Origin: an uncultured Gammaproteobacteria bacterium
GTDB lineage: Bacteria > Patescibacteriota > Microgenomatia > UM-FILTER-40-11
Assembly: GCA_964452885.1 (NCBI GenBank)
Contig: CAYVNK010000001.1
Location: 1 to 42,923 of the forward strand
Reading direction: 5' to 3'
Length of the DNA: 42,923 nt
Position 1 is the stretch's first letter, and each line of letters opens with the position of its first letter. Below the pieces are notes generated by a model, which searched no databases, was not told where the DNA came from, and saw nothing but the letters and a program-made list of their open reading frames with translations. The position numbers and the translations under genes were made by a program. Shown here one piece after another: positions 3,657 to 39,516 of the stretch.

Positions 3657-4681
3657 AAAATTCCTGCCAAAAATAAAATAATTAACATGAACATTGTATA
3701 GAATTTTGCTTCACTATTCAAATTTAACGCCAGAATTCCCAAAGCGGCGGTAATTAGCCAGTAAAAAATAGCAATACGTCTTTTTCCCCAGCCTAAAGCC
3801 AGTAGCCGGTGATGAAGATGTTCCCTTCCTCCCCAAAAAGGCGCTCGGCCGGCAAGAATTCTTTTGACCACTAAATATAAAGCGTCGATTAAGGGAATGG
3901 CCAGAACGAGCATGAGGGTCGCGATTTTAGCAGTAGAAAGAATGGAAAGAACCGCCAGCAAGAACCCGGCCATGGTTTTTCCGCCATAGCCAGGCATAAT
4001 TTTTTGCGGGTAGAAATTCCAAACCAGAAAACCCAAATAAGCCCCTCCGGTGATCATTGCCAAAACAATTACTGGCCACTGGGTAATATCGGCGGAAAAT
4101 TTTAAGGAAAGGCCGGCAATGGTCATGGCGGCGATAACTACCACCCCGGGAAGTTGGCCTTCTACTCCGCCGGACCAGCCGACAAAATTCATTGTCCAAG
4201 CGATCCACAAAATCGCTAAAATATCGGCCAGCAGCCAGATACAATGAGGGCCGAGAAAATTAAAACATATTTTCGGTAAGTCAAGGCGGATAATCCCGCC
4301 GAAGGGATTGTTGACAAAAGCAATACCGATGCCGGCACCGATGACGATGGCAGCCGCCAGGAAATTACTGAGTAAACGGATGAGGGGATGAATCTTTTCC
4401 TCAAACTTGTCATCCAGAAGGCCGACGATTAAAGCGACTAAAGCTCCCGCCAAAATTCCTCTTAAATGTTTATCTAAAGGCAAAAAGAAAAGGCTGGTTA
4501 ATAAACCTAAAAAAATGGGAATGCCACCGCCGCGGGGAACCGGATAAGTATGGACCACTTTAGCTTGTTTATGTTTGGCAGGATCATCTAAAATCCGCCA
4601 TTTTTTCATTAAAAGAATCACTAAAGGGGTAGTTAAAAAAGAAACCGCGGCAGAAAGCAAAAACGGCCAGTAAACAGTCAT
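3602..4681 (-). CDS. Glycosyltransferase family 4 polyprenyl-phosphate sugar-1-phosphate transferase (MraY/WecA superfamily)
   Basis: 359-aa, roughly 10-TM protein with LDDKFE and other motifs of the MraY/WecA family. Its 3' end overlaps the downstream UbiA gene by 55 nt, which may allow translational coupling. Confidence 0.65.
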   Translation of the reverse strand: MTVYWPFLLSAAVSFLTTPLVILLMKKWRILDDPAKHKQAKVVHTYPVPRGGGIPIFLGLLTSLFFLPLDKHLRGILAGALVALIVGLLDDKFEEKIHPLIRLLSNFLAAAIVIGAGIGIAFVNNPFGGIIRLDLPKICFNFLGPHCIWLLADILAILWIAWTMNFVGWSGGVEGQLPGVVVIAAMTIAGLSLKFSADITQWPVIVLAMITGGAYLGFLVWNFYPQKIMPGYGGKTMAGFLLAVLSILSTAKIATLMLVLAIPLIDALYLVVKRILAGRAPFWGGREHLHHRLLALGWGKRRIAIFYWLITAALGILALNLNSEAKFYTMFMLIILFLAGILWLNYLSISLKRRDQDSG

Positions 4682-5030: not shown

Positions 5031-6527
5031 TCAGATTCCTCTTTTAAGATAAACCGTGAAGTTATTCATACTTTTCATTTCCAGGTAATTATTTTGAATA
5101 AAAATTACCAGAGAAGGCAGACGTTTTATTTTTTCGTCCACAATAATCAGTTTTGGTTTATTCGCTTCAAGTTTAGTCAGGGTTTTTTCTTCCCGGTGCA
5201 GGTCCAGAATGTGGTAGGCGACCAAATAAGGGGTGGCGGGCAAACGGCGGGAAAGAGCATAAATTGACGGCTCATCCGCCCAAATAAAGATTTTTTCGTT
5301 TGGCAAAGAACTGGTATCGATAATTTGCCCCAGCCGATAAAGGGCGGGGACGTTTTTACCGAAATAGGAGAAATAGTCATTTTTCGTTTTTTGCCCTAAG
5401 GCGAATTGAGCGAAGTTTTGGTAGTAGGAAATCGTGGGATAATACCAGAAGCGGTAACGGTAAAGGGTTAATCCCAGTAAAAGAAAAAAGGAAGCGGCGA
5501 TAAGGGTGATTGTTTTCTTCTTTTCCAGGAAAATTAAACCGGCCAAAAGGGTTAAGGGCGGGATGATCTGAACCAGATAATGGGGGTAAGGCCGGCCGGA
5601 TAAAGTGGCCCCAAAAAGAGAGAAAAGTAACCAGATGAAAACAAAAAGGGCGGCCGGGAGCAGTTTTTTTCTTAGAATCCAGAAAAGGAATAGCAGGGAT
5701 AAGATTATCGTTCCTTTGATGGCCAAATCCGTCTTGAGAAGGGCAATTAAGGAAAAGACGTGCGAACCGGTTTTCCAGGAAGAAAGATAACCAAAAGTCT
5801 GAACAATGGCGGAGTTTAAAAATAGGCCTAAAATTCCCTTTAACCAAAAAAAGAGGCAGGTGAAGACAAAAGGGAGGAGATAACCCAAGACCAGGAGAAT
5901 TTCCTTCCGGCCGATTTTAATAATTTTCCCTCCGGTGAAGAAAAGAAGAAAAACCATTAAGGCCAGAAAATCAAAAAGGGCAGGTAGTTTTAAGAGAAAG
6001 CCCAAGCCCAAAAGCAGACCGGCAAGAAAATAAAGGAAGGGCTTTTCTTTTTGATTTGAGAAAACCAAAAACAGTCCCAGAACGGTAGGCAAGAGGATAA
6101 AAATTTCGGCGTTGGCAATATTGCCTTCCAAAAGCCGGAGGGTGGTTAAGGCGGCAAAAATTACCGTGACTGCTTTAGCCGGTATTTCCTTTCCGGAAAG
6201 CAATTTTTGACTCATTTGGTAGAAAAAGTAGATTGAGGCCAAGACCGAAGAGAGGAGCAGGAAGCGGAACCAAAAAATGGTGCCATTGACCGCGGCCGGC
6301 AGGAGATAGAAAAGCGGCGGCTTATTATCAAAAACATCACGATATAATAAAAATCCTTTTCTTAGAGCCAGACCAATGGTTAAATAGATTCCTTCATCGC
6401 CGTACCAATACGGCTCAAACAAGGAAGGCAGACGGAAAAGCAAAGTTACGAAAAGAACCAGAAGAATAAACCGATTTTGACGGAGAAAATGTTTCATCTC
6501 TCTAATTTTAGATTTAAAAGACGCCAT
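5031..6527 (-). CDS. GT-C fold (GT39/ArnT/PMT_2-like) lipid-carrier-dependent glycosyltransferase
   Basis: 498-aa polytopic protein. The N-terminal loop EPYWYGDEGIYLTIG is typical of ArnT/PMT-like enzymes. Confidence 0.65.
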   Translation of the reverse strand: MASFKSKIREMKHFLRQNRFILLVLFVTLLFRLPSLFEPYWYGDEGIYLTIGLALRKGFLLYRDVFDNKPPLFYLLPAAVNGTIFWFRFLLLSSVLASIYFFYQMSQKLLSGKEIPAKAVTVIFAALTTLRLLEGNIANAEIFILLPTVLGLFLVFSNQKEKPFLYFLAGLLLGLGFLLKLPALFDFLALMVFLLFFTGGKIIKIGRKEILLVLGYLLPFVFTCLFFWLKGILGLFLNSAIVQTFGYLSSWKTGSHVFSLIALLKTDLAIKGTIILSLLFLFWILRKKLLPAALFVFIWLLFSLFGATLSGRPYPHYLVQIIPPLTLLAGLIFLEKKKTITLIAASFFLLLGLTLYRYRFWYYPTISYYQNFAQFALGQKTKNDYFSYFGKNVPALYRLGQIIDTSSLPNEKIFIWADEPSIYALSRRLPATPYLVAYHILDLHREEKTLTKLEANKPKLIIVDEKIKRLPSLVIFIQNNYLEMKSMNNFTVYLKRGI

Positions 6528-11588: not shown

Positions 11589-12305
11589 ATGAGTGACCTG
11601 GATAATTTAAGAAAAGATTTAAGAAATTTTCAAAGACCCGGGAAGGCAAAGCTTTTACAAAGATTTTTTAAAACAGGAAAGGGAGAATACGGAGAAGGGG
11701 ATATTTTTTTAGGATTAATGACGGACAAGACCCGTAGTATCGCCAAAAAATATTTATCTTTAGATTTTAGTTTTATCAGTCAACTTCTTGCCTCGAAAAT
11801 TCATGAAGAAAGAGTAGTGGCAGTAATAATTTTAACTTCTCGGTTTAGAAAAGCGGATTTAGTCGGTAAAAAAGAAATTTACGATTTTTATTTTGAAAAT
11901 ATTTCCGGTATTAATAACTGGGATTTGGTTGACAGTTCAGCGCCGTTAATTGTCGGCGGATACCTTTATTTATCAAAAGAATCGCGAGATATACTTTACA
12001 AAATGGCCAGATCAAATAGTCTCTGGAAGAAGAGAATCGGCATTATGGCCACTTTTTATTTTGTCCAGGAAAAGGATTTTTCCGACGCCTTAAAAATCGC
12101 GGAAATACTGGTTAACGACAAGGAAGATTTAATTCAAAAAGCAGTCGGTTGGATGTTGCGGGAAATCGGGAACCGTGATCAAAAAATCGAGGAAGATTTT
12201 TTAAAGAAATATTTTAAAACGATGCCAAGAACCATGCTGCGATACGCAATCGAAAAATTTCCGGAAGAAAAAAGGAAAAGTTATTTAAACGGAAAAATTT
12301 GTTAA
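11589..12305 (+). CDS. DNA alkylation repair protein (AlkD-like HEAT-repeat glycosylase family)
   Basis: RFFKTGKGEYGEGDIFLGL..., NNWDLVD..., WMLREIG are signature stretches of the DNA_alkylation family. Confidence 0.75.
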   Translation: MSDLDNLRKDLRNFQRPGKAKLLQRFFKTGKGEYGEGDIFLGLMTDKTRSIAKKYLSLDFSFISQLLASKIHEERVVAVIILTSRFRKADLVGKKEIYDFYFENISGINNWDLVDSSAPLIVGGYLYLSKESRDILYKMARSNSLWKKRIGIMATFYFVQEKDFSDALKIAEILVNDKEDLIQKAVGWMLREIGNRDQKIEEDFLKKYFKTMPRTMLRYAIEKFPEEKRKSYLNGKIC

Positions 12306-13537
12306 ATCAATTTATAACCCTGGTTCTTAACGGTTTTGACCCGGCTTTCTATCTTTAATAAAACCAATTTTTTTCTTAATCTTTTAATTAACTGATCCAA
12401 AGTCCATTCGTTTACTTTCTCCGCTTTTTCCGGCCAAACAAAATTAATGATCTCTTCCCGCAGGATAATTTCACCCTCCCTGTCTTTCAGTATTTGGAAT
12501 AATTTTTTTTCTTTTAGGGTTAATTCCTGTCCGGTAGATTTTGTAAACTCTTTTTGTTTTTCAACAAAATCCTTAAAAAGGGGGTTAAAAATCTCTCCCT
12601 TACTGTCAACCAATCCGATTTGATAGAGAAAACTTTCTTGAGGAATTTTTTTATTTAACAAAGCTTCTTTTTCTTCAAGAGCCAGATAGTCCCAAAGCTC
12701 CAGATTTTGTTGCCAAATTTCCGGATCTTTTTTAAATAAATCATCGATATTTTTTAAGGAGTATTTATTATTTTCTAGAATTTGCAAAATCAGTAAACAA
12801 TATTGAGCATGTCCGCCGGAGTATTCAAAAGCAATTGTTTTAATTTTTTCCGAAAGCTTAACTTTTCTTGATCTTTCAAATTCTCCGATCACCGCCAGTA
12901 AGTCAACGAAAGTGCCGGGTTTTAAAAAGTATTTTTGTGAAAAAACTTCTAAATTTCCACCCCTGAGTGCGTCCGGGAATAGAAATTCCAAAGGTCGATT
13001 TAAGGTAAAGAAAAAATTTATTTTTTGTTTAGCGATATCTTTTAAAGATTGAAGATGGGCAAAAAATAAATAGGAAAATATCGAAAAAACCCGGTCAAAC
13101 CGGTTAAAAAGTAAAAAGACCAGAAAATCATTGCTGCAAAGTAGTCTAATTGCCCTTTTGGTATTGTCGGAAAAAGTGAAAGCGTCATTTGTTCGACCGG
13201 CGGATTAATAAAGATCATTTATTTCTTTACTGTTGGCTTGGTCGCTTACTCTTTTTAAAATAAGCTGCCAAAAATCCTTTTCTGTGAAATTAAACATATC
13301 GTTTAAATCAATTTCCAGTAAAAGAATTTTTTGGGATTTTAATTTCTTTTCCAAAAGTTCCGGATGAGTCAAAATATAACGTAAAACTCTGGCCAAACCG
13401 ACTCGGGGTAAACCAATCAGGGATAAAGGCTGAAACGAAGACAAAAAGCCGATGATTTTTGATATTTCCGATTTTCGGAAATCAGAGGAATATAAAGATT
13501 CATAAATAAGTGATTTCTGCATAATATCATTTGTCAT
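12302..13537 (-). pseudogene. ATPase-like N-domain plus OmpR/PhoB-type winged-helix regulator, interrupted by one in-frame TAA
   Basis: Track ORFs 13205..13537 and 12302..12991 are in the same frame. I translated 12992-13204 by hand and found no other stop, so a single TAA (13205-13207) splits a ~411-codon frame. The C-terminus LREEIINFVWPEKAEKVNEWTLDQLIKRLRKKL...VKNQGYKLI is a trans_reg_C winged helix. The N-terminal LIGLPRVGLARVL looks like a degenerate P-loop. Confidence 0.65.
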
Positions 13538-13791: not shown

Positions 13792-14550
13792 ATGATTGAA
13801 TCAAAAGAAAGGGTACCATTGATGTCAGAAGAAGAAATATTACTGAGAAACGGTCAAGAGTTTGAACAAGTAAAGCGAATTTTGGGTGAGGCAGAAAATT
13901 ATGGGGTCGATGTAAGCAAGTTAAAATATAGAGTTCGAACAAGCTTTGACGGCGGGGATGGTCCCGATGATATTTTTGGCGGCTTTTTTAGTGAACATGA
14001 TAATGTAATGCAAAAAATCCGTAGAAGCGCCAGAGCAGCAGTATTGGTTGCTAACGGAGCAGATGCCGCTGCCGCAGGACTTTGGACTTGGGATCATCAG
14101 GCCCAAAAAGAAAATTCTGAAATTATAGGAAACAGTAATTTCTTTGTTATTTGGAAAAACTTATTCGGTAAAACAGTCGCTTTGGGGGATAGCCAATATT
14201 TAATTAATAATCCCGTAATTGAAAAATTTAATTCTCTTTGCCGAACTCACAGAGGGTGGATGAGTATAGAATGTTGGAATCTGGGATGTTCGGGACTGTA
14301 TCTTGATAAAAATTTTCCACGTCATAAAGATGTTTGGCCGGAAAATTTAACCTTTTTATTCTCCGACGAAGTAGAACAACTAAAAACTAAGGGCAGTCTG
14401 GTGACTTATTATTATCATTCAATATACCAAGAAGCGGCAGAAGCATATTTTATGTACGGAGATGTTGATGGTGGAGAGATTTTGTTAAGTAGCGATGACA
14501 AAAGGAATCCAATTCTTCTTTATAAGATACGGGCGACATTAATGGATTAA
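13792..14550 (+). CDS. Hypothetical protein, no family recognised
   Basis: 252-aa ORF with a plausible RBS (aaaggaataaATG). It has a locally GC-richer, Gly/Asp/Ala-rich stretch (DGGDGPDDIFGGFF...ANGADAAAAGLWTW). No motif I can name. Confidence 0.5.
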   Translation: MIESKERVPLMSEEEILLRNGQEFEQVKRILGEAENYGVDVSKLKYRVRTSFDGGDGPDDIFGGFFSEHDNVMQKIRRSARAAVLVANGADAAAAGLWTWDHQAQKENSEIIGNSNFFVIWKNLFGKTVALGDSQYLINNPVIEKFNSLCRTHRGWMSIECWNLGCSGLYLDKNFPRHKDVWPENLTFLFSDEVEQLKTKGSLVTYYYHSIYQEAAEAYFMYGDVDGGEILLSSDDKRNPILLYKIRATLMD

Positions 14551-14561
14551 GCTTACTGATG

Positions 14562-14603
14562 TATAAGCAAAGCTTCAATCGCTTCGCGATATAAGCAAAG
14601 CTT
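14562..14603. repeat. 14-nt direct repeat pair flanking a small palindrome
   Basis: tataagcaaagctt occurs at 14562-14575 and again at 14590-14603. Between the copies lies atcgc-ttc-gcgat (a 5-bp stem). Confidence 0.85.
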
Positions 14604-14610
14604 GAAAAAG

Positions 14611-14635
14611 CACTCTGGGTTTTCAGCCCAGAGTG
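14611..14635 (+). terminator. Hairpin downstream of 13792..14550 (possible terminator)
   Basis: cactctggg-ttttcag-cccagagtg, a perfect 9-bp stem. The trailing sequence tcttataatt is only weakly U-rich. Confidence 0.4.
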
Positions 14636-14638
14636 TCT

Positions 14639-14710
14639 TATAATTCGCTCATGGCTGAGGAAAAGGTTTTAAACAAAGAGCAAGTTGAAGCAGTTGAACA
14701 TGGAGAGGAA
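14639..14710 (+). pseudogene. Ghost copy of the helicase-nuclease promoter -10 box and first ~20 codons
   Basis: The ghost reads tataat-tcgctc-ATG...MAEEKVLNKEQVEAVEHGEE. The real start at 15030 reads tataat-tagccc-ATG...MSNSSDKILNSEQVEAIEHGEG. Many of the differences are synonymous third-position changes. Similarity ends where the DUF3175 gene's stop (14711-14713) begins. Confidence 0.8.
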
Positions 14711-14998
14711 CTAATTTTTGGCTGGTTTCCTAAACAGATTCCTTAATTCAATTTTTGCCTGCTGGAGAATTGCCTTGCGGTTGACGGGTAAATTTTTCCC
14801 GGCGCGATTAATGTAAAAATTGAGCATGCTCATGGCAGATTGAAAAGGGGAAGCCTTTCGTCGCAGGGAATTTTCGGCCGACACTTTTAAGGAAACAGCA
14901 ATTTTTTCAGGGTCATTCCAGGCAAATACTCCTTCTTCTAGGTCAAGGGCGATACTGTGTTTGGTTACCTCGCCGGACCAGTTTTTCTTTTTTGGCAT
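14711..14998 (-). CDS. DUF3175 domain protein
   Basis: TKHSIALDLEEGVFAWNDPEKIA-SLK-SAE...RRKASPFQSAMSMLNFYINRAGKNLP matches the DUF3175 family pattern as I recall it. Confidence 0.65.
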   Translation of the reverse strand: MPKKKNWSGEVTKHSIALDLEEGVFAWNDPEKIAVSLKVSAENSLRRKASPFQSAMSMLNFYINRAGKNLPVNRKAILQQAKIELRNLFRKPAKN

Positions 14999-15029
14999 TG
15001 GGGATTTAGGTCGATTTTAACACATGCAG

Positions 15030-15035
15030 TATAAT
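15030..15035 (+). promoter_or_regulatory. -10 box (TATAAT) 6 nt upstream of the helicase ATG, suggesting a leaderless transcript
   Basis: TATAAT at 15030-15035, then tagccc, then ATG at 15042. No Shine-Dalgarno sequence is possible in that spacing. Confidence 0.45.
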
Positions 15036-15041
15036 TAGCCC

Positions 15042-18000
15042 ATGTCTAATTCTTCGGATAAAATTCTTAATTCCGAGCAAGTTGAGGCAATTGAACACGG
15101 AGAGGGGCCGCTTTTGATTATTGCCGGAGCAGGAACTGGTAAGACAACCGTGGTTACCGAAAGAATTAAATATTTAATTACTAAAAGAGAGATTTCTCCT
15201 TCGGAAATTTTGGCCCTGACTTTTACGGAAAAAGCTTCTTTGGAAATGCAGGAGCGGGTGGATGTCGCTTTGCCTTTGGGCTATGCCAATATGTGGATTT
15301 CCACTTTTCATACTTTCGGCGATCGGATTTTGCGCAATGAGGTGGTCAATGTCGGCTTGGACCCACAGTATCATTTAATGACTCAGGCAGAAAGTATTCA
15401 ATTTTTGCGCAAAAACCTTTTTGAATTTGATTTAAATTATTTTCGGCCGCTTGGCAACCCCAATAAATTTGTCGAGGGGATGCTTAAGCATTTCAGTCGG
15501 CTTAAAGACGAAGACGTATCGCCCAATGAATATTTTCATTGGGTTCAAGGTCAAAGATCAAAAATCAAAAATCAAAATGATGAGATTGAAACTGAAGCAG
15601 AAGACGAGGTGAAAAAATACGAAGAATTGGCCAAAGCTTTTAAGGTTTATGAAGAGTTGAAAGTAAAAGAAGGGCTGATGGATTTTGAGGATTTAATTGG
15701 CCACGTTTTAACGGTTTTTAGGAAAAGGCCGAGTATTCTTAAAACTTATCAAAAAAAGTTCAAATACGTTCTGGTGGACGAGTTTCAGGATACGAACTTC
15801 AGCCAGTATGAAATGATTAAACTGCTGTCGTCTCCACCCAAGAGTAATTTAACTGTCGTGGGGGACGATAACCAATGCTTGCCGGGTGAAACAGAAATTT
15901 CTCTTCTTGGGGGCAAAAAAAGAATTGATCAAATAAAAGTAGGTGATGTGATACTTACGGCGGTGGGGAAAGGTCACACCTCTGGATCTAAAGTTAGTCG
16001 GGTTTTTAAAAACAAAAAAAAGGCGAGATTGTTAACTTTTACTTTAGAAACGGGAGAGAAAATTACGGTTACAGATAATCATAAAGTGTTTTGTTTTATT
16101 CCTTCTAAAGAAAATAAGAAAGATTTTCATTTTGTTTACTTAATGAAACACCAAGATTACGGTTGGCGGTTGGGTGTAACCAATGATTTAGCCTCCAGGT
16201 TAAGATTGGAAGCCCACGCAGATGGTATTTTATCCATCGGGTCTTATAAAACTGATCAAGAGGCTCGGTATTACGAAGCACTTTTTTCTGCAAGATATGG
16301 ACTTCCGACAGTTCCTTTCAGCTCTCACCCCAAGCAAGCAATTACCGGGGATTATCTTAAAAAACCTTTTGTTGAATTAAAAACCAAGGAAAGGGTTAAG
16401 AAATTGGCGATTGATTTGGGAATTGAGATAAATTCTTTTGGTGTTACAAGAAATGGGGTAGTTAGGGGATCTAGCGATCGGGTAATAGTAAATTTTCAGA
16501 TGTGTTACCGAAATTATCGGAGTAAAACTCACAAAGAAGGGTTTGTTGGCAACCCCGCCATTAGTCATTTGGTTTACATAGAAACATCTTCACAAAAAAC
16601 AATTTCTATCTTAGAAAATGCCGGCCATAAGTTAGCCAAAGCCAAAAAAGGAAAGAGGTTTAGATATACAACTGCCAACATTGCGGAAGCGTGGCAAATG
16701 GCCGATAACCTAGTTATTTTAACCGGAGGAATTTTAAACAAAAAATTTTCCTTAGGAACAAAAAATTATCAACATAAGCCAGCAACTATTGTACCGGCGG
16801 GTAATGTTTGGCCGGGAAATTATTTCCCAGTATTGGAAGGGAAAAGAATAGTTTATAAAAAAATTATTGGCAGAACCGAAGAAGTAAAAGAACTAGTGGT
16901 GTATGATCTGGAAATTGAAAAAACTCACAATTTTATTGCCAATGGGATACCGGTTCACAATTCAATCTATAAATTTAGGGGCGCGGCCATTTCCAATATT
17001 CTGCAGTTTAAAAAAGATTATCCTGAGGCCAAGTGTGTGGTTTTAAACCAAAACTATCGTTCGACTCAAACGATTTTGGATGCTTCTTACAAACTGATTA
17101 AGAATAACGACCCGGACACTTTGGAAGCAAGCTTGGGTATCAGCAAAAAGTTGGAAAAAGTAAGAGAAGTGGAGGAAACACCGGTCGGATTTCTTTGGTC
17201 GGACCGGGTGGAAAACGAAGCCGAGGCAGTGGCCAAGAAAATTTTTGATCTTAAAAACGAGAACGATGCTTTATCCTGGAAAGATTTTGCCGTTTTGGTG
17301 CGTGCCAATAATCATGTCGATCCTTTTATCAAAGCCTTTGTCCGCCGGGGAGCTCCTTATCAATTTTTGGGGCCGGGGATACTTTTCCGCCAGCCAGAAG
17401 TTAAAGATTTAATCGCTTATCTTTCGGTTTTATCTAATTTTGAGGATTCGGTGGCCATGTATCGGCTTTTGGCCATGGATTTCTGGGGGATTTCCGGTCG
17501 GGATTTGGCTTTAATCATCAATTACGGTCGGAAAAATAATTTGTCTATTTTTGAAGCCGGTGAGAAAGTCTTAAAAGACGAATCGGTGGTCATTGCCGAT
17601 AAAACCAAAGAAACATTAAAAAAGTTGATGGAAATGATTTATCGGCATTTGAATTTGGTAAAAAAAGAAACTGCCGGCCAGATTCTTTATTTCTTTTTGG
17701 AAGACAGCGGGCTTTTAAAGCAGTTAACCAATTACAAAACGGCGGCGGACGAGAGAAAGGTGCAAAATATCGCCAAGTTTTTTGACAAACTGAAGACTTA
17801 TGAGGTTGAACACGAAGATGCTTCGGTTTATGCGGTGGTCGATTTTGTTAATCTTTCTTTGGAATTAGGGGAGTCGCCATTGGCGAGCGACTTGGATTGG
17901 TTTGGGAACGACGCGGTTAATATTTTAACGGTGCATTCGGCCAAAGGCCTGGAATTTCCCGTGGTTTTTTTGGTGAATTTGGTTGATCAGCGTTTTCCGA

Positions 18001-19097
18001 CGAATGAGCGGCGGGAGCAGATTCCTATTCCTGAAGAATTGATTAAAGAAGTTTTGCCGCAAGGAGACTTTCATTTGGAAGAAGAAAGACGGCTTTTTTA
18101 TGTGGGCATGACCAGAGCCAGAGACAGACTTTTTTTGACAGGAGCAAATTTTTACGGTGAGGGAAAAAGGGAAAAGAAAGTTTCGGTTTTTGTGAAAGAA
18201 GCGTTAGGCAATATCAAAAATCAAATATCAAATATCAAAAATAAGGAGAACCAATTGTCAATTTTTGATTTTAAACCAACAACTGAAGTTAAACTTCCAA
18301 CTTCCAGTTTCCAACTTCCAACTTCGGTTCCTATCTCCTATTTGTCCTATTCCCAAATTGAGACCTTTAATACCTGTCCTTTGCAATACAAATACCGTTA
18401 TCTTTTAAGAATTCCCACTCCGCCGTCGGCGGCCGCTTCTTTCGGTGAGACAATTCATGAAACAATGAAAGATTTTTATCAAAGAGCAATTGCGGGGCAA
18501 AAGCCCACCAAAGAAGATTTAGTGAAAATTCTTTCCGAAAATTGGAGCCCCTCGGGTTACCCGTCAAAAGCCCATGAAGAAAAATATAAAAAAGAAGGGG
18601 AGAAAATTTTGAGTGAATTTTTTGAAAAATCTTTTAATCCCAAAAATGTACCTTTGACCTTAGAGCAGGTTTTCAGCGTTAAAATCAGTCCGACTTTAAA
18701 AGTTGGCGGTAGGATTGACCGGATTGATCGCGTCAAACGCGATTCGGGTAGAGAAGAAATAGAAATTATTGATTACAAGACCGGCAAATCACCGACCAAA
18801 AAAGATGTCGAAGAAGATTTACAACTAACACTTTATGCTTTGGCGGCCACCGACGGCACTTTAACTTATATGGGCATTTTTAAAAAGACGCCCCAGCCGG
18901 AAGAAGTAAAAATTTCTTTTTATTTTTTTGATAATCAGGAAAAAATTTCCAGCTTTAGGAAAAAAGAAGATTTTCCAAAAATAAAAGAAGAGCTGATTAA
19001 AAAAGCGGAGGAGATAAGCCGGTCGACTTTTTCGCCGACTCCGGGCAAGCTTTGTGATTTTTGTGAGTTTAAATTAATCTGTGAAGCCTGGAGCTAA
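15042..19097 (+). CDS. UvrD/PcrA-type SF1 helicase fused to a C-terminal PD-(D/E)XK (Cas4/AddB-type, 4-Cys) nuclease; intein-containing precursor
   Basis: GAGTGKT (Walker A), VLVDEFQDTN (motif II), VGDDNQ|intein|SIYKFRGA (motif III), NYRST, and TVHSAKGLEFPVVFL...YVGMTRAR. The nuclease part has C-PLQYKYRY, GRIDRIDR, EIIDYKTGK, QLTLYALA and the terminal CDFCEFKLIC. The precursor is 1351 aa, which gives 989 aa after removal of the 362-aa intein. Confidence 0.9.
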   Translation: MSNSSDKILNSEQVEAIEHGEGPLLIIAGAGTGKTTVVTERIKYLITKREISPSEILALTFTEKASLEMQERVDVALPLGYANMWISTFHTFGDRILRNEVVNVGLDPQYHLMTQAESIQFLRKNLFEFDLNYFRPLGNPNKFVEGMLKHFSRLKDEDVSPNEYFHWVQGQRSKIKNQNDEIETEAEDEVKKYEELAKAFKVYEELKVKEGLMDFEDLIGHVLTVFRKRPSILKTYQKKFKYVLVDEFQDTNFSQYEMIKLLSSPPKSNLTVVGDDNQCLPGETEISLLGGKKRIDQIKVGDVILTAVGKGHTSGSKVSRVFKNKKKARLLTFTLETGEKITVTDNHKVFCFIPSKENKKDFHFVYLMKHQDYGWRLGVTNDLASRLRLEAHADGILSIGSYKTDQEARYYEALFSARYGLPTVPFSSHPKQAITGDYLKKPFVELKTKERVKKLAIDLGIEINSFGVTRNGVVRGSSDRVIVNFQMCYRNYRSKTHKEGFVGNPAISHLVYIETSSQKTISILENAGHKLAKAKKGKRFRYTTANIAEAWQMADNLVILTGGILNKKFSLGTKNYQHKPATIVPAGNVWPGNYFPVLEGKRIVYKKIIGRTEEVKELVVYDLEIEKTHNFIANGIPVHNSIYKFRGAAISNILQFKKDYPEAKCVVLNQNYRSTQTILDASYKLIKNNDPDTLEASLGISKKLEKVREVEETPVGFLWSDRVENEAEAVAKKIFDLKNENDALSWKDFAVLVRANNHVDPFIKAFVRRGAPYQFLGPGILFRQPEVKDLIAYLSVLSNFEDSVAMYRLLAMDFWGISGRDLALIINYGRKNNLSIFEAGEKVLKDESVVIADKTKETLKKLMEMIYRHLNLVKKETAGQILYFFLEDSGLLKQLTNYKTAADERKVQNIAKFFDKLKTYEVEHEDASVYAVVDFVNLSLELGESPLASDLDWFGNDAVNILTVHSAKGLEFPVVFLVNLVDQRFPTNERREQIPIPEELIKEVLPQGDFHLEEERRLFYVGMTRARDRLFLTGANFYGEGKREKKVSVFVKEALGNIKNQISNIKNKENQLSIFDFKPTTEVKLPTSSFQLPTSVPISYLSYSQIETFNTCPLQYKYRYLLRIPTPPSAAASFGETIHETMKDFYQRAIAGQKPTKEDLVKILSENWSPSGYPSKAHEEKYKKEGEKILSEFFEKSFNPKNVPLTLEQVFSVKISPTLKVGGRIDRIDRVKRDSGREEIEIIDYKTGKSPTKKDVEEDLQLTLYALAATDGTLTYMGIFKKTPQPEEVKISFYFFDNQEKISSFRKKEDFPKIKEELIKKAEEISRSTFSPTPGKLCDFCEFKLICEAWS
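15550..15577. repeat. Heptanucleotide tandem array (ATCAAAA-type x4)
   Basis: gtcaaag atcaaaa atcaaaa atcaaaa, in frame in the helicase (RSKIKNQN). Confidence 0.9.
15876..16961 (+). mobile_element. Intein (362 aa) inserted in helicase motif III, with an endonuclease-size insert
   Basis: Block A is CLPGETEISLLGG, directly after VGDDNQ. Block B is ITVTDNH (TxxH). Blocks F/G are ELVVYDLEIEKTHNFIANGIPVHN, followed by the +1 Ser of SIYKFRGA. The extein junction restores the canonical DDxQSIYxFRGA motif. Confidence 0.9.
18213..18240. repeat. Heptanucleotide tandem array (ATCAAAW x4)
   Basis: atcaaaa atcaaat atcaaat atcaaaa. It encodes NIKNQISNIKN in the helicase-nuclease linker. Confidence 0.9.
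18294..18328. repeat. Heptanucleotide tandem array (CTTCCAA x5)
   Basis: cttccaa cttccag tttccaa cttccaa cttcggt. It encodes LPTSSFQLPTS in the same linker. Confidence 0.9.
19050..19097 (+). repeat. R1: functional 3' terminus of the helicase-nuclease (LCDFCEFKLICEAWS*)
   Basis: ctt tgt gat ttt tgt gag ttt aaa tta atc tgt gaa gcc tgg agc taa. This is the first of four copies. Confidence 0.9.
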
Positions 19098-19626
19098 ATG
19101 ATTATTGCGGTCGGTTCTAAAAATCCAACTAAGGTCAATGTGGTTAAAAAAGTTTTTACTAAAGGTTTTGGAAATTGTACTGTTATAGGTGTCAAGGTGC
19201 CTTCAGGTGTATCAGATATGCCAATGTGTTTTGATGAGTCATTCAAGGGAGCAAAAAACAGAGCTAAAAACGCTATTAAAAAAAATAAAAAAGGCTGATT
19301 TTGCCGTTGGTTTGGAAGGTGGGTTTGAGGAAACAAAAGAAGGAACTTTTTTGTGCGGTTATGCGGCAGTTATAGATAAAAAAGAAAATTTTGGAATTGG
19401 CGGGAGTTCGAGAGTTTTGGTTCCTGAAAGAATAGTGGCAGAAGTTAAAAAAGGAAAAGAACTAGGTGAGGTAATGGATAAGCTTAGGGGACAAAAAAAT
19501 ACAAAACAACATGATGGAGCAGTTGGCTATTTTACCAGAAATTTGATTCCTAGAACTAAATGGTTTGAAACAACACTTATTTGTGCCCTATCCCATTTTA
19601 TGAAAAAAGAGTTGTACAAAGAATGA
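19098..19626 (+). pseudogene. YjjX/DUF84-like non-canonical purine NTP phosphatase, frameshifted in an A-rich run
   Basis: 19098..19298 reads MIIAVGSKNPTKV...PSGVSDMP...GAKNRAKNAIKK and then stops. The +1 frame (track ORF 19189..19626) continues KKADFAVGLEGG...DGAVGYFT, completing the family pattern. The shift lies within attaaaaaaaataaaaaaggctga (~19275-19298). The ATG abuts the helicase stop (taaATG). Confidence 0.7.
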
Positions 19627-19634
19627 GTTTTTAA

Positions 19635-19676
19635 CTTTGTGAGTTTTGTGAATTTAAGTTACTCTGTGAGGCATAG
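19635..19676 (+). repeat. R2: diverged ghost of the helicase 3' terminus (LCEFCEFKLLCEA*)
   Basis: ctt tgt gag ttt tgt gaa ttt aag tta ctc tgt gag gca tag. There are 7 differences from R1 over the 39 nt from the first Cys codon, 4 of them synonymous, and Trp has become TAG. Confidence 0.85.
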
Positions 19677-19698
19677 ATTTAAAATGTAATGTGACCTA

Positions 19699-19726
19699 TT
19701 GACTTTAATTATAGGTATGTTATAAC
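19699..19726 (+). promoter_or_regulatory. Putative sigma70-type promoter of the orphan two-gene cassette
   Basis: TTGACT (19699-19704), a 16-nt spacer, then TATAAC (19721-19726). The ATG lies 34 nt downstream at 19761. Confidence 0.4.
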
Positions 19727-19760
19727 TTGCATTAATAAGAAGATAATTTTTTAAATAAAA

Positions 19761-20081
19761 ATGGTTGAGAGAACTCTTTCTAAAACTACAGAAACTTCAG
19801 GAGAGATTGGTATTAATAGCAGATTGATAAGGATATCTTTCCAAGATTCACGGCCTGTAGAATATTGTCAATATAGTCCTTCGCAAACTGAAATTCTACT
19901 TGAACAAATTACCACATCGTTCGGAACAGAATTGGGAGAAGCTTATTTGAATCCAGACAATGGCACGAAATTGGTTAGACTTTCCAGGCCGGTTGTTTTA
20001 CAAATAGAAGCACAAGAGAAAGAAGTTTACTTGCGAGGCAATACACAAGATTTTCTCCGTTTTGTCGGGATCAAGGAGTAA
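19761..20081 (+). CDS. Hypothetical protein (106 aa), cassette B gene 1
   Basis: Clean ORF behind its own promoter-like element. No recognisable motif. Confidence 0.45.
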   Translation: MVERTLSKTTETSGEIGINSRLIRISFQDSRPVEYCQYSPSQTEILLEQITTSFGTELGEAYLNPDNGTKLVRLSRPVVLQIEAQEKEVYLRGNTQDFLRFVGIKE

Positions 20082-20143
20082 TTGAAAAAATTTTTGAAGA
20101 AAACAATTCTCGAGTAAGAGGTAAAAACCCCGAGCGGACTTTA

Positions 20144-20650
20144 ATGAAGATAGCAGAAAGAATCAAATCAGAAAATGGAGGCGTCTGGTCCACAGTCAAG
20201 GAAGTGACCGACCCACGTTTTATTCCAGATATTCCACTCGCACGATGGCGAAAAGAGTTTTACTTTGCTGTGTATAAGTTGGACGGAAATGAAAGTGTAC
20301 CGGAAGATGTTCTTCCGTTTACAATTCACGAAGAAACAGAATTTGAGGGAAAATTACCAGATGTTCACATTACTTTTAAGAGAGAACCGTTGTTTATGAG
20401 TGGTATTGGATTTGGATTAGTAAGGACAGATTTACAACGACCCGACAGCTTTTGGTTTAGTTTTTCTAGAACTAGCTACGAACACGCAGTAGCTACTTCA
20501 TCCGCTCGCGGTTTGCACCCCTCAAGTATATTAAAGGAAAATCCGAAATTGGGGATAAGGGGCGATGTCTCTCCAACCGAACCAAGAGAAAGGGTAATGG
20601 CTTTCATTCAGGCGTATTTAAGAAAAATGTGTGTAGGTACAACCCTTTAG
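20144..20650 (+). CDS. Hypothetical protein (168 aa), cassette B gene 2
   Basis: Clean ORF 62 nt downstream of gene 1 on the same strand. It looks less AT-rich by eye than its surroundings. No recognisable motif. Confidence 0.45.
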   Translation: MKIAERIKSENGGVWSTVKEVTDPRFIPDIPLARWRKEFYFAVYKLDGNESVPEDVLPFTIHEETEFEGKLPDVHITFKREPLFMSGIGFGLVRTDLQRPDSFWFSFSRTSYEHAVATSSARGLHPSSILKENPKLGIRGDVSPTEPRERVMAFIQAYLRKMCVGTTL

Positions 20651-20687
20651 GGTTTGTTAAACCACTTGAAACTTATTACATAAACAG

Positions 20688-20732
20688 TGCGATTTTTGTA
20701 AATTTAAATTACTCGGGGAAGCGTGGATCTAA
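20688..20732 (+). repeat. R3: diverged ghost of the helicase 3' terminus (CDFCKFKLLGEAWI*)
   Basis: tgc gat ttt tgt aaa ttt aaa tta ctc ggg gaa gcg tgg atc taa. There are 8 differences from R1 over 45 nt and the third Cys is lost. It shares the tta-ctc codons with R2. Confidence 0.8.
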
Positions 20733-20739
20733 CCAGTTA

Positions 20740-20768
20740 TTGACAAAATTCTGAATTTCTGATATTCT
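20740..20768 (+). promoter_or_regulatory. Putative promoter of vapBC (leaderless geometry)
   Basis: TTGACA (20740-20745), a 17-nt spacer, then TATTCT (20763-20768), then gaaaat, then ATG at 20775. Confidence 0.5.
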
Positions 20769-20774
20769 GAAAAT

Positions 20775-21050
20775 ATGAACGGAGATTATATTTCAACTAC
20801 TGTAATTCGTCAAAGAGGACAATTAACACTTCCTAAAAAACTAAGAACTGAAAATAGTTGGCTTGCTGAAGGGATGGTGGTTGCTGTTTTGTCTTCTGTA
20901 CAAAAAGAAGTGAAGATTATTCCTTATAAAGAATCTTCCAAAAAGACCGACTGGAAAGACATTTGGGAGAAAATAAAACTTTCTAGAACTTTTTTGGGTC
21001 AAAGAGGAAATTTATCTCAATTTGTTGTTGAAGACCGATCTGCACATTAA
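20775..21050 (+). CDS. vapB: AbrB/SpoVT-MazE-type antitoxin (VapB-like)
   Basis: IRQRGQLTLPKKLR... looped-hinge-helix motif, 91 aa, immediately upstream of a PIN gene. Confidence 0.75.
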   Translation: MNGDYISTTVIRQRGQLTLPKKLRTENSWLAEGMVVAVLSSVQKEVKIIPYKESSKKTDWKDIWEKIKLSRTFLGQRGNLSQFVVEDRSAH

Positions 21051-21057
21051 TATATGT

Positions 21058-21486
21058 ATGGCAAAAATTAAAAAATTGATTATAGATTCTTCGGTTGGAG
21101 TTAAATGGCTTAACGGCCAAGATGAAAAATATTTGGATCAGGCGGATAAAATTCTCCAAGATTGTGAGAAAATGAAGGTTGCTTTATATGCTCCGGAATT
21201 GGCCAAGTATGAAATTGGCAATGCTATTCGTTATAAGGGATTGGATGAATCTTTTGCTAAAATTTGTTTATCTACCTTGTATTCCTTGCCGATTACTTTT
21301 GTTTCTCTAGAAGAAAAAGATGCCCTTGAAACTTTGGTAATTGCCCAAAAAGAAAACATAACTTATTATGATGCTGTTTTTGTAAATTTGGCCGAGAAAA
21401 TCGGAGGCATCCTAGTAACTGATAATCCTAAACATCAAAGTAAAATAAAAGGGATAAAAGTTGTTAGCTTGAAAAATTATCAATAG
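21058..21486 (+). CDS. vapC: PIN-domain toxin (VapC-like)
   Basis: The ATG at 21058 gives MAKIKKLIIDSSVGVKWL (first acidic residue). Later come PELAKYEIGNA, YYDAVFVNLAE and VTDN. The track ORF start at 21022 overlaps vapB and is less likely. Confidence 0.75.
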   Translation: MAKIKKLIIDSSVGVKWLNGQDEKYLDQADKILQDCEKMKVALYAPELAKYEIGNAIRYKGLDESFAKICLSTLYSLPITFVSLEEKDALETLVIAQKENITYYDAVFVNLAEKIGGILVTDNPKHQSKIKGIKVVSLKNYQ

Positions 21487-21494
21487 CCAGGTAC

Positions 21495-21539
21495 TGCGAC
21501 TTTTGTGAGTTTAAATTAATTTGTGAAGCCTGGAGCTAA
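21495..21539 (+). repeat. R4: near-identical ghost of the helicase 3' terminus (CDFCEFKLICEAWS*)
   Basis: tgc gac ttt tgt gag ttt aaa tta att tgt gaa gcc tgg agc taa. It has 3 of 45 differences from R1, all synonymous third positions. Its TAA (21537-21539) overlaps the stop (21536-21538, minus strand) of the convergent FemAB gene. Confidence 0.9.
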
Positions 21540-22375
21540 AGGATATTTAGAGGAGATTTAAAGGATGATAGAGGTAAGGGAAATTCGATTTCTTTTCCTC
21601 TAAATCCCTCCTTAAAGTGAGTAAAACCAAGCCAGGAACGGTTTTTCGGAAAACGCTCGTCATAAATGCCTTCAAAATCAAAGTTTTCGCACCCTTTCTT
21701 TTTGGCCAACTTAATTGCTTCCCAAACAATCAAAGTTGGAGCGAGTAATTTTTTCCCTTTCTCAGTCGTCGCCGCTTGCCAGTAGTAAGCGGTTTTATCG
21801 CAAAACAGTAACAAGACGCCGGCCACAATTTTTTTCTCATATTCTGCCACTAAAATAATGGCTTTTTCTTTAAATGCGTCACAAGTTAGTTTAATTTCTT
21901 TTCTGGTACTAAAGGGCAAAATAAACTTTTTTAACAAATACTCTTTTTTAAGCTGATAAAAATCCTCGTAAGAACCCTCTTTAATTAAAAGATTATTTTT
22001 TTCGGCGATTCTGATATCCCGCCTTTTGTTTTTGGAAAACGAATCGAAAATTTCCTGTTCTGAACATTTAATGTCTTTGATGAGCGTTTTGGTGGGAATA
22101 AAGGGAGATTTAAGAGGACGGTAATCAGAGGGATAGCTGTTAACTGTTAGCTTATAATCGCTTGTAGGTTCAATAATGACCCGAAAGGCGTGATATTTCT
22201 TGGCAAGTTTTTCAATTTCGGAAAATGGAATTGGGAATTGGATTCTTTGAATTTTGATTAAAGTACCCAGTAAGGGAATTTTTCTGATAAAAACTTGTTC
22301 CCCGCCAAGTTTTTCTATTTGCCAGCCAAGACTTTTTAAATACTCCCCATATTCTAAAGATTGTCTTAAATCCAT
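21536..22375 (-). CDS. FemAB-family peptidoglycan interpeptide-bridge aminoacyltransferase
   Basis: AYYWQAATTEKGKKLLAPTLIVWEAIKLAKKKGCENFDFEGI...GFTHFKEGF is typical of the FemAB / lipid II peptidyltransferase family. Confidence 0.75.
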   Translation of the reverse strand: MDLRQSLEYGEYLKSLGWQIEKLGGEQVFIRKIPLLGTLIKIQRIQFPIPFSEIEKLAKKYHAFRVIIEPTSDYKLTVNSYPSDYRPLKSPFIPTKTLIKDIKCSEQEIFDSFSKNKRRDIRIAEKNNLLIKEGSYEDFYQLKKEYLLKKFILPFSTRKEIKLTCDAFKEKAIILVAEYEKKIVAGVLLLFCDKTAYYWQAATTEKGKKLLAPTLIVWEAIKLAKKKGCENFDFEGIYDERFPKNRSWLGFTHFKEGFRGKEIEFPLPLSSFKSPLNIL

Positions 22376-31108: not shown

Positions 31109-32616
31109 ATGAAACAGATATTAAAAAATATTATTAAAAAAATTGATTTATTATTTTGGGCAATTTTTATTTTTTCCTGTTTACCCAGGTTTCTTTTTTT
31201 GGATAAAATTCCCTTAAGGGTTGATGGAGATGCTTCGCGCTTTGCCTTGGATGGTTTAAGTGCGTGGCGGGAACATTGGTCTTTATTTTCAACCGGCTGG
31301 CAAGGGCACACATTTTTTTGTTTTATCTAATTGGTTTCTTTGTCAAAATTTTTAAAAATCAATTGCTTGGGTTAAGACTATTTTCCGTTGTTGGTGGGAA
31401 TCTGTCGGTAGTCGCTACATATCTTTTGGCCAAGAAACTTTTTGATAAAAAAGTCGCTTTTTGGGCAGCAGTTTTTTTGGCTGTTTGTCCGTTTCACTTG
31501 GTTTTTTCGCGGGTCGGGACGGAGGCAATTTGGACAAGTTTTTTTGCCCCCTTAGTTGCTTATTTGATACTTGAATCCTTCCTTTTTAGTATATTTTTGG
31601 CAGGTTTTCTTATTGGTTTTTCCCAGTATTTTTATCCGGGAGCGAGAATCTTGCCGATTATGGCTCTGTTTCAATTAATCATTTTAGTCCTGTATTCCAA
31701 ATTAAAGATTATTGAGGGATTAAAAAAAGTAGCAATAATCATCTTGGGGATAATTTTGGTATATTTTCCAATGATTAATCATTTTTATCATCACCCCGAT
31801 GAATATTCTGCTAGAGTTAATATTGTCGGAATATTTCAGTCAGGTTGGTTGGTTAAAGAAAGTGCCAAAAGGCCAATTGTAAATATTTTTTGGGAACAAA
31901 TTAAAAACAGTTTTCAGGTTTTTTGGTTACCAGTTAATTCAGGGTCGCGTTTTTGGTTTATTCGAACTCCTTATCTTGACTTTCTCCCCATCATATTTTT
32001 TAGTTTAGGAATAATTATCTTGCTCATTTCATTGAAGAAAATCTATCAACCGCTTTTTTTACTCGGTTTTTTTGTTTTAACAGTTTTTTTTGCTGGGGTT
32101 CTGACGATTGATTCACCGACACCAAGCCGCTATGTGATTATTTTCCCTTTCCTGGCAATTATAGTCGGTATTGGTCTTGAAAAAATGTTGAGTAAATTTA
32201 AAACTAAAATTGCCAAAATATTTTTTGGAATAATCCTTGTTTTATCATCGGGTTATTCTTACTGGCGTCATGAGACAATAGATACTTGGAAATATGATAC
32301 TAATACACAGATTGCGACTTTTGCAGGCCGGTATTTATCGCAAAAAACAGGTAATTATCAAATTTATTTTCTTGGAAATAATAATTTGTATTATAACGCC
32401 ATACCAACACTTCCTTTTTTAACTAAAAAAGAAGGTACTGATATTTTTAAGCCTATTGAAAAATATACAGGCATTAATGAAGGAAAAAGTTATTTTATTA
32501 TTCTTCCTGACAGAAAAGCCGATTTAGGATATTTGAGAAAAAATTATCCTTTAGGGAAATCCTCGGAATTTAAAAACCCTCTAGGAGATTTGCTTTTTTA
32601 TCTCTTTGAAAAATAG
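31109..32616 (+). pseudogene. GT-C (GT39/ArnT-like) glycosyltransferase split by a frameshift near a T-run
   Basis: 31109..31330 encodes the N-terminal TM segment and loop (LPRFLFLDKIPLRVDGDASRFAL...GWQGH). The other frame (track ORF 31264..32616) continues ...FLFYLIGFF...LFSVVGGNLSVVATYLLAKKLF...CPFHLVFSRVG. The frame switch lies around cacacatttttttgttt (~31305-31320). Confidence 0.65.
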
Positions 32617-38670: not shown

Positions 38671-38867
38671 CGCATTCTTCTTTGCTCAAGTTCATCAAGC
38701 AGTTTTTCATCCAGTTTCGGATCTAGAACCCTAGTTTCCTGAGGAGTTAAAATCGGCTTGGGTGTTTTTTGCAAAGCTCGGGAAACACTTAAATAAATGT
38801 ATAAAAAAGCCGTGGTTAAAGCGAGAACGGTGATAAGAAGGATTACCTGGGTTTGATTTTTTTTCAT
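38667..38867 (-). CDS. Small single-pass membrane protein in the pilus-like operon
   Basis: 66 aa with one TM segment (VILLITVLALTTAFLYIYL). Its start and stop overlap the neighbouring genes by 4 nt each. Confidence 0.45.
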   Translation of the reverse strand: MKKNQTQVILLITVLALTTAFLYIYLSVSRALQKTPKPILTPQETRVLDPKLDEKLLDELEQRRMR

Positions 38868-39511: not shown

Positions 39512-39516
39512 ATATT

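Follow-up and report, generated by a model that had tools for sequence, protein, structure and literature searches.

The gene for a UvrD-type helicase fused to a PD-(D/E)XK nuclease in a population of Candidatus Shapirobacteria (Microgenomates, part of the Candidate Phyla Radiation, CPR) appears to have had both of its ends displaced by incoming DNA, the former ends being left beside the gene as short stubs. The gene lies on contig CAYVNK010000001.1 of assembly GCA_964452885.1; the whole 42,923 nucleotides of this contig were analysed and are called the window, and many metagenome assemblies contain the same locus. Upstream of the intact helicase start stands a truncated start, here called the ghost, with a DUF3175 gene between the two. 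Downstream of the helicase stop codon stand three accessory modules, each followed by a stub of the helicase 3′ end (g1, g2 and g3). The three 3′ stubs, together with stubs in other lineages, support the view that the 5′ event would be one instance of a recurrent process acting at both ends of the helicase. We favor homology-anchored additive recombination, or end displacement, as the source of the ghost and the stubs, with a probability of about 60%. The 5′ region consists of the following parts.

14639–14710, plus strand: the 5′ ghost, a presumed resident helicase −10 box, ATG and first 20 codons, truncated before Walker A.
14711–14998, minus strand: DUF3175 gene of 95 amino acids, an accessory gene apparently inserted, its stop codon abutting the ghost.
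15030–15107, plus strand: presumed replacement promoter and functional helicase 5′ end, with the −10 box at 15030–15035 and the N-terminal type MSNSSDKILNSEQ...
15042–19097, plus strand: UvrD-type helicase fused to a PD-(D/E)XK nuclease, 1351 amino acids, with the Pfam matches UvrD-helicase, UvrD_C, PDDEXK_1 and Intein_splicing.

The ghost comprises 72 bases, with TATAAT at 14639–14644, six further nucleotides, an ATG at 14651 and codons for the peptide MAEEKVLNKEQVEAVEHGEE through 14710. The real start repeats this order, TATAAT and six nucleotides leading to the ATG at 15042 and the peptide MSNSSDKILNSEQVEAIEHGEG. The parallel was drawn in an earlier note on this DNA, and the sequence is as described there: the local alignment of the two starts scores 30, against 8.7 ± 1.4 and a maximum of 17 for shuffled sequences, and the next-best match anywhere else in the window scores 17. 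A DNA profile built solely from the 5′ ends of helicase orthologues matches 14635–14713 at E = 5e-14. Chance similarity is excluded by the shuffles and by this profile, and the mini open reading frame (ORF) of the ghost is not a conserved independent gene. The arrangement of ghost, DUF3175 gene and real start is identical in at least five independent assemblies, whose ghosts are free of single-nucleotide polymorphisms (SNPs), and an assembly artefact is thereby ruled out. The ghost is evidently a truncated copy homologous to the start of the adjoining intact helicase. The distance from copy to copy is 397 bp, rather than the roughly 330 bp that the earlier note gave for the inserted segment. 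Over 16 aligned codons the two starts differ at 13 nucleotides, 7 of them third positions, with 5 synonymous and 4 non-synonymous codon changes; that the differences are mostly synonymous, as had been stated, holds only modestly. The divergence between ghost and real start, like that of the 3′ stubs, is biased by codon position.

The ghost can be compared with the resident DNA upstream of it.

13792–14550, plus strand: geneX, an ORFan of 252 amino acids with no Pfam family, the resident upstream flank.
14551–14638, no strand assigned: spacer with two copies of TATAAGCAAAGCTT (14562–14575 and 14590–14603) and a hairpin (14610–14636).

Among 5.8 billion proteins geneX has a sole homologue, P0242, which is 81% identical and is encoded on the 999-nt contig of locus L181. 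There, 22 nt after the stop codon of the geneX homologue, TATAAT, six nucleotides and an ATG open a helicase start that is intact and reads on into Walker A, MVGERVLNKEQKEAIEHGEGPLLIIAGAGTGK. L181 represents the un-inserted 5′ state, and it supports the earlier proposal that the DUF3175 gene came in together with a new 5′ end and promoter just before Walker A. A relative had been predicted in which the hairpin is followed directly by an intact helicase. L181 offers geneX followed by an intact helicase start, while the hairpin-then-helicase state is unseen, the hairpin-bearing 81 nt upstream of the ghost being missing from L181 in the alignment. The ghost matches the functional start of L181 at 57 of 72 positions (79%) and geneX matches L181 at 617 of 759 nucleotides (81%); for the real start of the window, the identity to the L181 start is only 69%. 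Measured against other functional starts, the ghost is 88% identical to that of L099, 83% to those of L009, L012 and L013, and 75% to that of its own gene, so that the alignment with orthologue 5′ ends asked for by the earlier note is found. Full-length orthologues possess two types of N-terminal peptide, MAEEK... as in the ghost and M(S/P)NSS... as in the real start; the real-start type is common to P0009, P0008 and P0005 and differs from that of the ghost.

Since the ghost is nearer to the starts of orthologues than to that of its own gene, and has diverged from L181 as geneX has, a resident start was apparently displaced, rather than a local one duplicated. A divergence from L181 equal to that of the flank indicates that the ghost was inherited with the flank and that the functional start came from another lineage. 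These comparisons support the interpretation of the ghost as the probable original helicase promoter and first 20 codons, in their native place downstream of geneX. Alternatively, the 5′ region of the helicase, and separately its 3′ region, may have been duplicated locally in tandem; the copies would then have diverged, and small genes between them would have been captured or rearranged. The repeats are direct and close together, as such an origin predicts, but the closeness of the ghost to orthologue starts and its flank-like divergence from L181 are at odds with it. Furthermore, many differences are synonymous, which implies that both copies evolved as coding sequence in separate lineages, and the intervening genes are absent from this locus in all relatives. 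The allelic divergence pattern rules out duplication in situ, and a tandem origin is very improbable.

The two copies of TATAAGCAAAGCTT are 28 nt apart and lie within the 81-nt segment missing from L181. The spacer hairpin (−11.7 kcal/mol, z = −5.6) resembles a terminator on either strand, the T-tract being better on the minus strand, and may be a terminator of DUF3175 transcripts that cross the ghost.

The gene between the two starts is identified by Pfam PF11373 at E = 4.8e-40, with 136 bits against a gathering cutoff of 27 and with residues 7–91 of 95 covered. Its stop codon (TAG, minus strand) occupies 14711–14713, and the last similar base of the ghost is 14708. The earlier note had the similarity stop exactly at this codon, which agrees with these positions; the exactness is less certain, since the last four DUF3175 residues, PAKN, extend past the usual C-terminus of the family and the true junction possibly lies up to ~15 nt inside the annotated ORF. 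The incoming DNA was probably at least 397 bp long and extended into the helicase by a homologous crossover that is now invisible. Homologues of DUF3175 with 80–90% identity are widespread in Microgenomates, but in other contexts. We surveyed about 170 helicase loci from genomes and metagenomes, and in none of them is DUF3175 next to the helicase; the nearest homologues stand in unrelated contexts without repeats. The suggestion that DUF3175 genes are recurring partners of helicase 5′ fragments is therefore unsupported. Similarly, neither ORF106 nor ORF168, the two ORFs of the second 3′ module, was found next to a helicase in these loci. A donor with the arrangement DUF3175-helicase-NTPase was not found either, and the sole hint of it comes from the distant L027, where an NTPase_I-T gene, 40–45% identical and the only such gene seen among the loci, lies ~0.8 kb downstream of the helicase.

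At the other end of the gene, a profile derived from orthologues detects three copies of the last 14–17 helicase codons, each of them after an accessory module.

19098–19626, plus strand: module 1, an NTPase_I-T (DUF84) gene that a frameshift has divided into two ORFs, both matching PF01931.
19633–19684, plus strand: stub g1, LCEFCEFKLLCEA and a stop codon, a decayed copy of the last 16 helicase codons (nhmmer E = 1e-9).
19761–20650, plus strand: module 2, ORFs of 106 and 168 amino acids that match no family and have no homologues in the other loci.
20682–20737, plus strand: stub g2, QCDFCKFKLLGEAWI and a stop codon (nhmmer E = 3e-10).
20775–21486, plus strand: module 3, a toxin-antitoxin (TA) pair of a 91-amino-acid antitoxin and a 142-amino-acid PIN toxin (Pfam PIN).
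21489–21540, plus strand: stub g3, YCDFCEFKLICEAWS and a stop codon, with the frame intact (nhmmer E = 2.5e-14).

In g1, nt 19635–19683 align with nt 19050–19098 at 82% identity over 49 nt, which confirms the 3′ scar of the earlier note and supports its claim that ends were replaced at both termini; g2 and g3 are two further copies. The identity of g3 to the real helicase end is 97.5% over 40 nt. The order of the array is real end-NTPase, g1-ORF106/168, g2-TA and g3-FemAB, and it reads as successive units of a gene end plus its neighbours, the newest adjoining the helicase. Downstream of g2, a promoter (TTGACA-N17-TATTCT at 20740–20768) lies in the sequence CAGTTATTGACAA..., the same as that found after the real helicase stop codon in L013 and L009, loci whose first downstream module is the TA pair. 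Because the TA promoter sequence is located downstream of g2 as it is downstream of the real ends in L013 and L009, g2 would once have been a functional end. The TA pair of module 3 also follows the helicase in L013, L009/L014, L106 and L132, at 58–78% amino-acid identity. The last stub, g3, abuts the 3′ end of a convergent FemAB gene (21536–22375, minus strand), and the real helicase end in L099 does likewise. L099 is an empty 3′ site, in which no module stands between FemAB and the overlapping helicase 3′ end; the upstream synteny of Trans_reg/ORF110 is common to L099 and the window.

The state of the ghost and g3 permits a different reading, namely that they are the two stubs of a single gene. 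The interior of an L099/L181-like resident, from codon 21 to ~57 nt before the stop codon, would have been swapped en bloc for a 6.8-kb donor segment (14711–21490) that already held DUF3175, the intein-bearing helicase and a pre-assembled 3′ array. The trigger may have been a double-strand break, made for instance by an intein homing endonuclease, and then resected. Such a replacement is consistent with the ghost and g3 being the best preserved copies, frames intact, and with their terminal peptide types, both of which are those of P0010/L099 (MAEEKVLNKEQ... and ...YCDFCEFKLICEAWS). The stronger decay of g1 and g2 is expected if they are older and were carried in, the L099 helicase abuts FemAB as g3 does, and the present helicase has an intein. 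However, the 51-nt helicase 3′ end is too conserved for the lineage of g3 to be read from it, as g3 matches 42–45 of the 51 positions in many orthologues, and a lineage assignment of g3 is ruled out for this reason. A TA module with a stub is present in four other lineages, none of which has a 5′ ghost; among the stub-bearing loci, L129, L009 and L116, for example, have no inteins; and no known donor carries the full array. A single replacement of this kind is unlikely, albeit credible.

The ATG of the NTPase_I-T gene directly follows the helicase stop codon. Its overlapping ORFs (19098–19298 and 19189–19626) are separated by a frameshift in or near the A-run at ~19276–19293, with the same split in all assemblies, and the split gene is a pseudogene or a case of programmed frameshifting. 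The PIN toxin ORF (21022–21486 in the window, 6626–7066 in L013) ends at differing places relative to the stub. In L013 it extends into the stub, where a TGA within the Cys codons ends it, and in L106 the stub lies in the same reading frame after the PIN stop codon. A consensus scan of the plus strand gave no promoter inside the 3′ stubs that could be the reason for their similar lengths. Conservation of the stubs through antisense coding of the FemAB C-terminus is true for L099 and L116 (overlap 29 nt or similar), but not for g3 in the window, where only the stop codons of stub and FemAB overlap.

Stubs of the helicase recur in other Microgenomates. At the 5′ end of L129, RmuC is followed by a ghost start, a minus-strand PIN/RHH toxin-antitoxin pair and the real start, the two starts being 90% identical over 69 nt and the junction falling at the PIN stop codon. 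In L024, the ghost has retained its promoter and two genes intervene. The 5′ junctions lie at helicase codon 20 in the window, ~28 in L129 and ~30 in L024. At the 3′ end, stubs follow the same TA module in L013, L009/L014 and L106; a stub in L116 follows a 302-amino-acid gene and overlaps a FemAB-like 3′ end; and L012 contains a weak 3′ stub. In four loci of distant Microgenomates an intact-frame stub (last 12–15 codons) is located behind a conserved GC-rich spacer of ~35 nt, …CGAGCRRAGCGAGG…, with no gene between the helicase stop codon and the stub.

L128, 10674–10747: spacer and stub.
L115, 3897–3970: spacer and stub.
L114, 10031–10105: spacer and stub.
L121, about 1040–1090: spacer and stub.

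In all loci with 10-kb flanks the stubs lie within 2.4 kb of the real end, and in the 43-kb window such end repeats are found at the helicase ends only. Tandem paralogous PMT_2 glycosyltransferase genes (32570–35990 and 31264–32616) are the only other long direct repeats of the window. In L171, a 47-nt promoter-like segment with CTAAACG heptad repeats is duplicated; its copies, at 4242–4288 and at ~6100–6150, are separated by 1.9 kb and lie upstream of the helicase and of a different gene.

End displacement may proceed as follows. Related Microgenomates DNA, probably taken up by transformation, would bring a different helicase allele along with its divergently transcribed neighbour DUF3175. 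One crossover would be homologous and would lie inside the conserved helicase, where it can no longer be seen. The other join would be illegitimate, or made via very short homology, tens of nt inside the resident 5′ end, the non-homologous tail of the donor with the neighbour gene being joined close to where homology ends. The gene would then be served by the incoming promoter and 5′ end, and the resident 5′ end would stay behind as a stub of too little length to recombine out. With every helicase 3′ end that came in together with its downstream neighbour, the previous end and its neighbours would be pushed downstream, repeatedly. Once a module lies between two copies of the gene end, the distal copy could serve as a homology arm for spread by ordinary recombination. 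The stubs may be short because joins occur near the homology border, because long direct repeats are lost, and because neighbours that abut or overlap the gene leave no intergenic room.

Alternatively, the modules may have arrived by site-specific integration, as small circular cassettes, or as what is left of larger, decayed integrative elements, whose att site mimics a helicase terminus and whose integrase or Xer-like recombinase is encoded elsewhere, the gene being reconstituted and the displaced end remaining as attR or attL. Direct repeats flank every module, the packing is tight (stubs start 0–30 nt after a stop codon), and among independent modules the left boundaries of the 3′ stubs spread over no more than 15 nt. 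The window, L013, L009 and L106 share one PIN-stop/stub junction despite differing downstream genes, and when mobile elements decay, toxin-antitoxin pairs are typically the last part to survive. Nevertheless, Pfam scans of all sizeable ORFs reveal no integrase, transposase, Xer-type or reverse transcriptase gene in the 43-kb window, and the loci with 10-kb flanks contain no large elements. The helicase codon at which the 5′ junction falls differs between cases; the stubs do not fold better than shuffled sequences (z = 0.05 to 1.0) and have no palindromic, hairpin or attC-like character; and the TA modules are as diverged as the helicase, giving no sign of recent mobility. The lack of a recombinase and of stub structure, the varying 5′ junctions and the confinement of stubs to 2.4 kb together argue against a site-specific element, which we consider doubtful, and against an integron. 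An integron cassette array is rejected for want of an integrase and because of the stub folding. A template/variable repeat (TR/VR) pair of a diversity-generating retroelement (DGR) is rejected as well, since a reverse transcriptase is absent from the window and mismatches are seen at all four bases instead of at adenine only. Recent horizontal transfer of the TA module is unsupported, TA identities being no higher than helicase identities.

Several observations count against end displacement. The starts of all independent 3′ stubs fall at −42 to −57 relative to the stop codon, a 15-nt span that is tighter than random illegitimate joins predict and that is a hint of a preferred site. In two of three cases (the window and L129) the 5′ junction falls on the stop codon of the inserted gene, which has a cassette-like look. 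The donor arrangement, with DUF3175 divergent from the helicase, is absent from the ~170 helicase loci and from the nearest DUF3175 contexts. The g3 and L013 stubs keep intact frames though the TA module is old, as its amino-acid identities show; these stubs are either young, homogenised by gene conversion, or under selection. The clustered stub starts, the intact frames and the stop-codon junctions would also fit a recombinase that acts in trans on a preferred site, or the single en-bloc replacement described above. Finally, with flanks 50–89% identical, no relative is close enough to place the homologous crossover or the microhomology at the junction.

The uptake of DNA assumed for end displacement is in agreement with the PilN/PilO genes of the window (38864–40059) and with the natural competence shown in another CPR lineage, the Saccharibacteria (PMC10633639). 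From these pilus genes and the Saccharibacteria only, we infer that Shapirobacteria may be competent. It is also conceivable, if speculative and rather improbable, that the two ultra-conserved helicase termini (the N-terminus before Walker A and the C-terminal CxxCx5C Fe-S motif) are portable recombination arms and form an integron-like "landing pad" that is free of an integrase. Competent CPR bacteria would swap small modules at it, the stubs would be kept by selection or gene conversion, and the intein homing endonuclease might start the breaks. If this were true, TA pairs, DUF3175 and NTPases would be exchanged between otherwise diverged genomes, with the stubs keeping the modules mobile.

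Displacement of gene ends has been described in toxin loci. C-terminal or sequential displacement in rhs, contact-dependent inhibition (CDI) and type VI secretion system (T6SS) effector-immunity loci has been attributed to homology-facilitated illegitimate recombination (HFIR) followed by homologous recombination (PMC5361080). Displacement arrays are known from rhs, from the cdiA-CT/cdiI orphans of CDI and from the T6SS effector-immunity loci of Vibrio cholerae (PMC5361080; Jackson et al. 2009 cited there). As at the helicase, a new end is added with its neighbour, and the old end is retained downstream as an orphan stub with its own neighbour, giving an ordered array. In both cases no dedicated recombinase is present, and a homologous anchor with an illegitimate join is proposed, followed by spread via the retained fragment. 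The helicase differs from these loci in that it is a housekeeping helicase-nuclease and not a toxin, and its displaced ends are functionally equivalent alleles rather than toxic tips. Its cargo consists of unrelated accessory genes (the TA pair, DUF3175, the NTPase and the ORFs), the stubs measure 42–85 nt, the 5′ end is displaced too together with a promoter, and the host is an uncultivated CPR bacterium. HFIR itself was observed during natural transformation of Acinetobacter, Streptococcus pneumoniae and Pseudomonas stutzeri (references in PMC5361080 and PMC3240628). There, one-sided homology anchors the foreign DNA, the other end is joined illegitimately near the homology border, and the outcome can be additive, all of which resembles end displacement. 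The helicase case, in contrast, is read from sequence alone, and closer relatives would be needed to read the microhomology at its junctions.

The array is also like an integron array: small modules stand tightly packed in order, a repeat comes after each one, and the newest probably lies by the "entry" site. Unlike integrons, it has no intI or attI, its repeats are coding copies without attC-type structure, and its modules have promoters of their own. Some integrative elements reconstitute their target gene: phage 21 and e14 do so at the 3′ end of icd, genomic islands at the 3′ ends of tRNA genes. In those cases, as at the helicase, the replacement end differs mainly at synonymous sites, the original end is left on the far side, and tandem accretion gives repeats. 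The helicase differs from them in that no integrase was found, the inserts are of 0.4–1 kb, and the 5′ junction positions vary. We know of no classic counterpart among integrative elements for the 5′-end version with promoter replacement. The displacement scar is thus of a known general kind; what is new is its occurrence in a housekeeping repair gene, at both termini, with the 5′ promoter included, and its recurrence across CPR lineages.

The stubs would constitute a sequence-level record of accessory genes entering compact CPR genomes without visible mobile-element machinery. A conserved core gene would act as the recombination anchor, the short displaced ends would be datable scars, and the order of stubs would provide a relative chronology of acquisitions. 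The "C-terminal displacement" of toxin loci would be extended in this way to a housekeeping DNA-repair gene and to a 5′ end with its promoter. For annotation, stubs may explain orphan mini-ORFs and promoters beside conserved genes and mark insertion hot spots.

The helicase gene has an additional feature in its interior.

15876–16961, plus strand: intein of 362 amino acids (CLPGE...VHN, followed by S), interrupting helicase motif III.

The intein is carried by some orthologues only (P0013, P0030, P0060, P0091 and P0108), and no homing-endonuclease family matches it. The closest helicase orthologue is 75% identical, which is the upper bound for all orthologues found. Synteny around the helicase is conserved among relatives, with GT2, tRNA synthetase and RmuC upstream and two FemAB, a second UvrD and LytR downstream; the small genes on both flanks of the helicase vary from genome to genome. 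The genes flanking the helicase are 50–89% identical to those of relatives, and the helicase segments fall within the same range, so that identity levels are uninformative on xenology. A compositional signature of foreign DNA was not found, there being no GC discontinuity.

On the minus strand at 12302–13537, a Trans_reg_C gene (12302–12991) and an ORF (13205–13537) correspond to one 411-amino-acid gene in the sister assemblies L002–L004, from which the window differs by SNPs at 13170 and 13206; the split is either strain-level pseudogenisation or a polymorphic stop codon. The only match to a known RNA family is sub-threshold and lies inside the helicase coding sequence, at 18051–18150 (Rfam RF03531, "C. 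difficile sRNA included into helicase gene", with 54 bits where the gathering score is 65), where it most likely reflects conserved helicase coding sequence.

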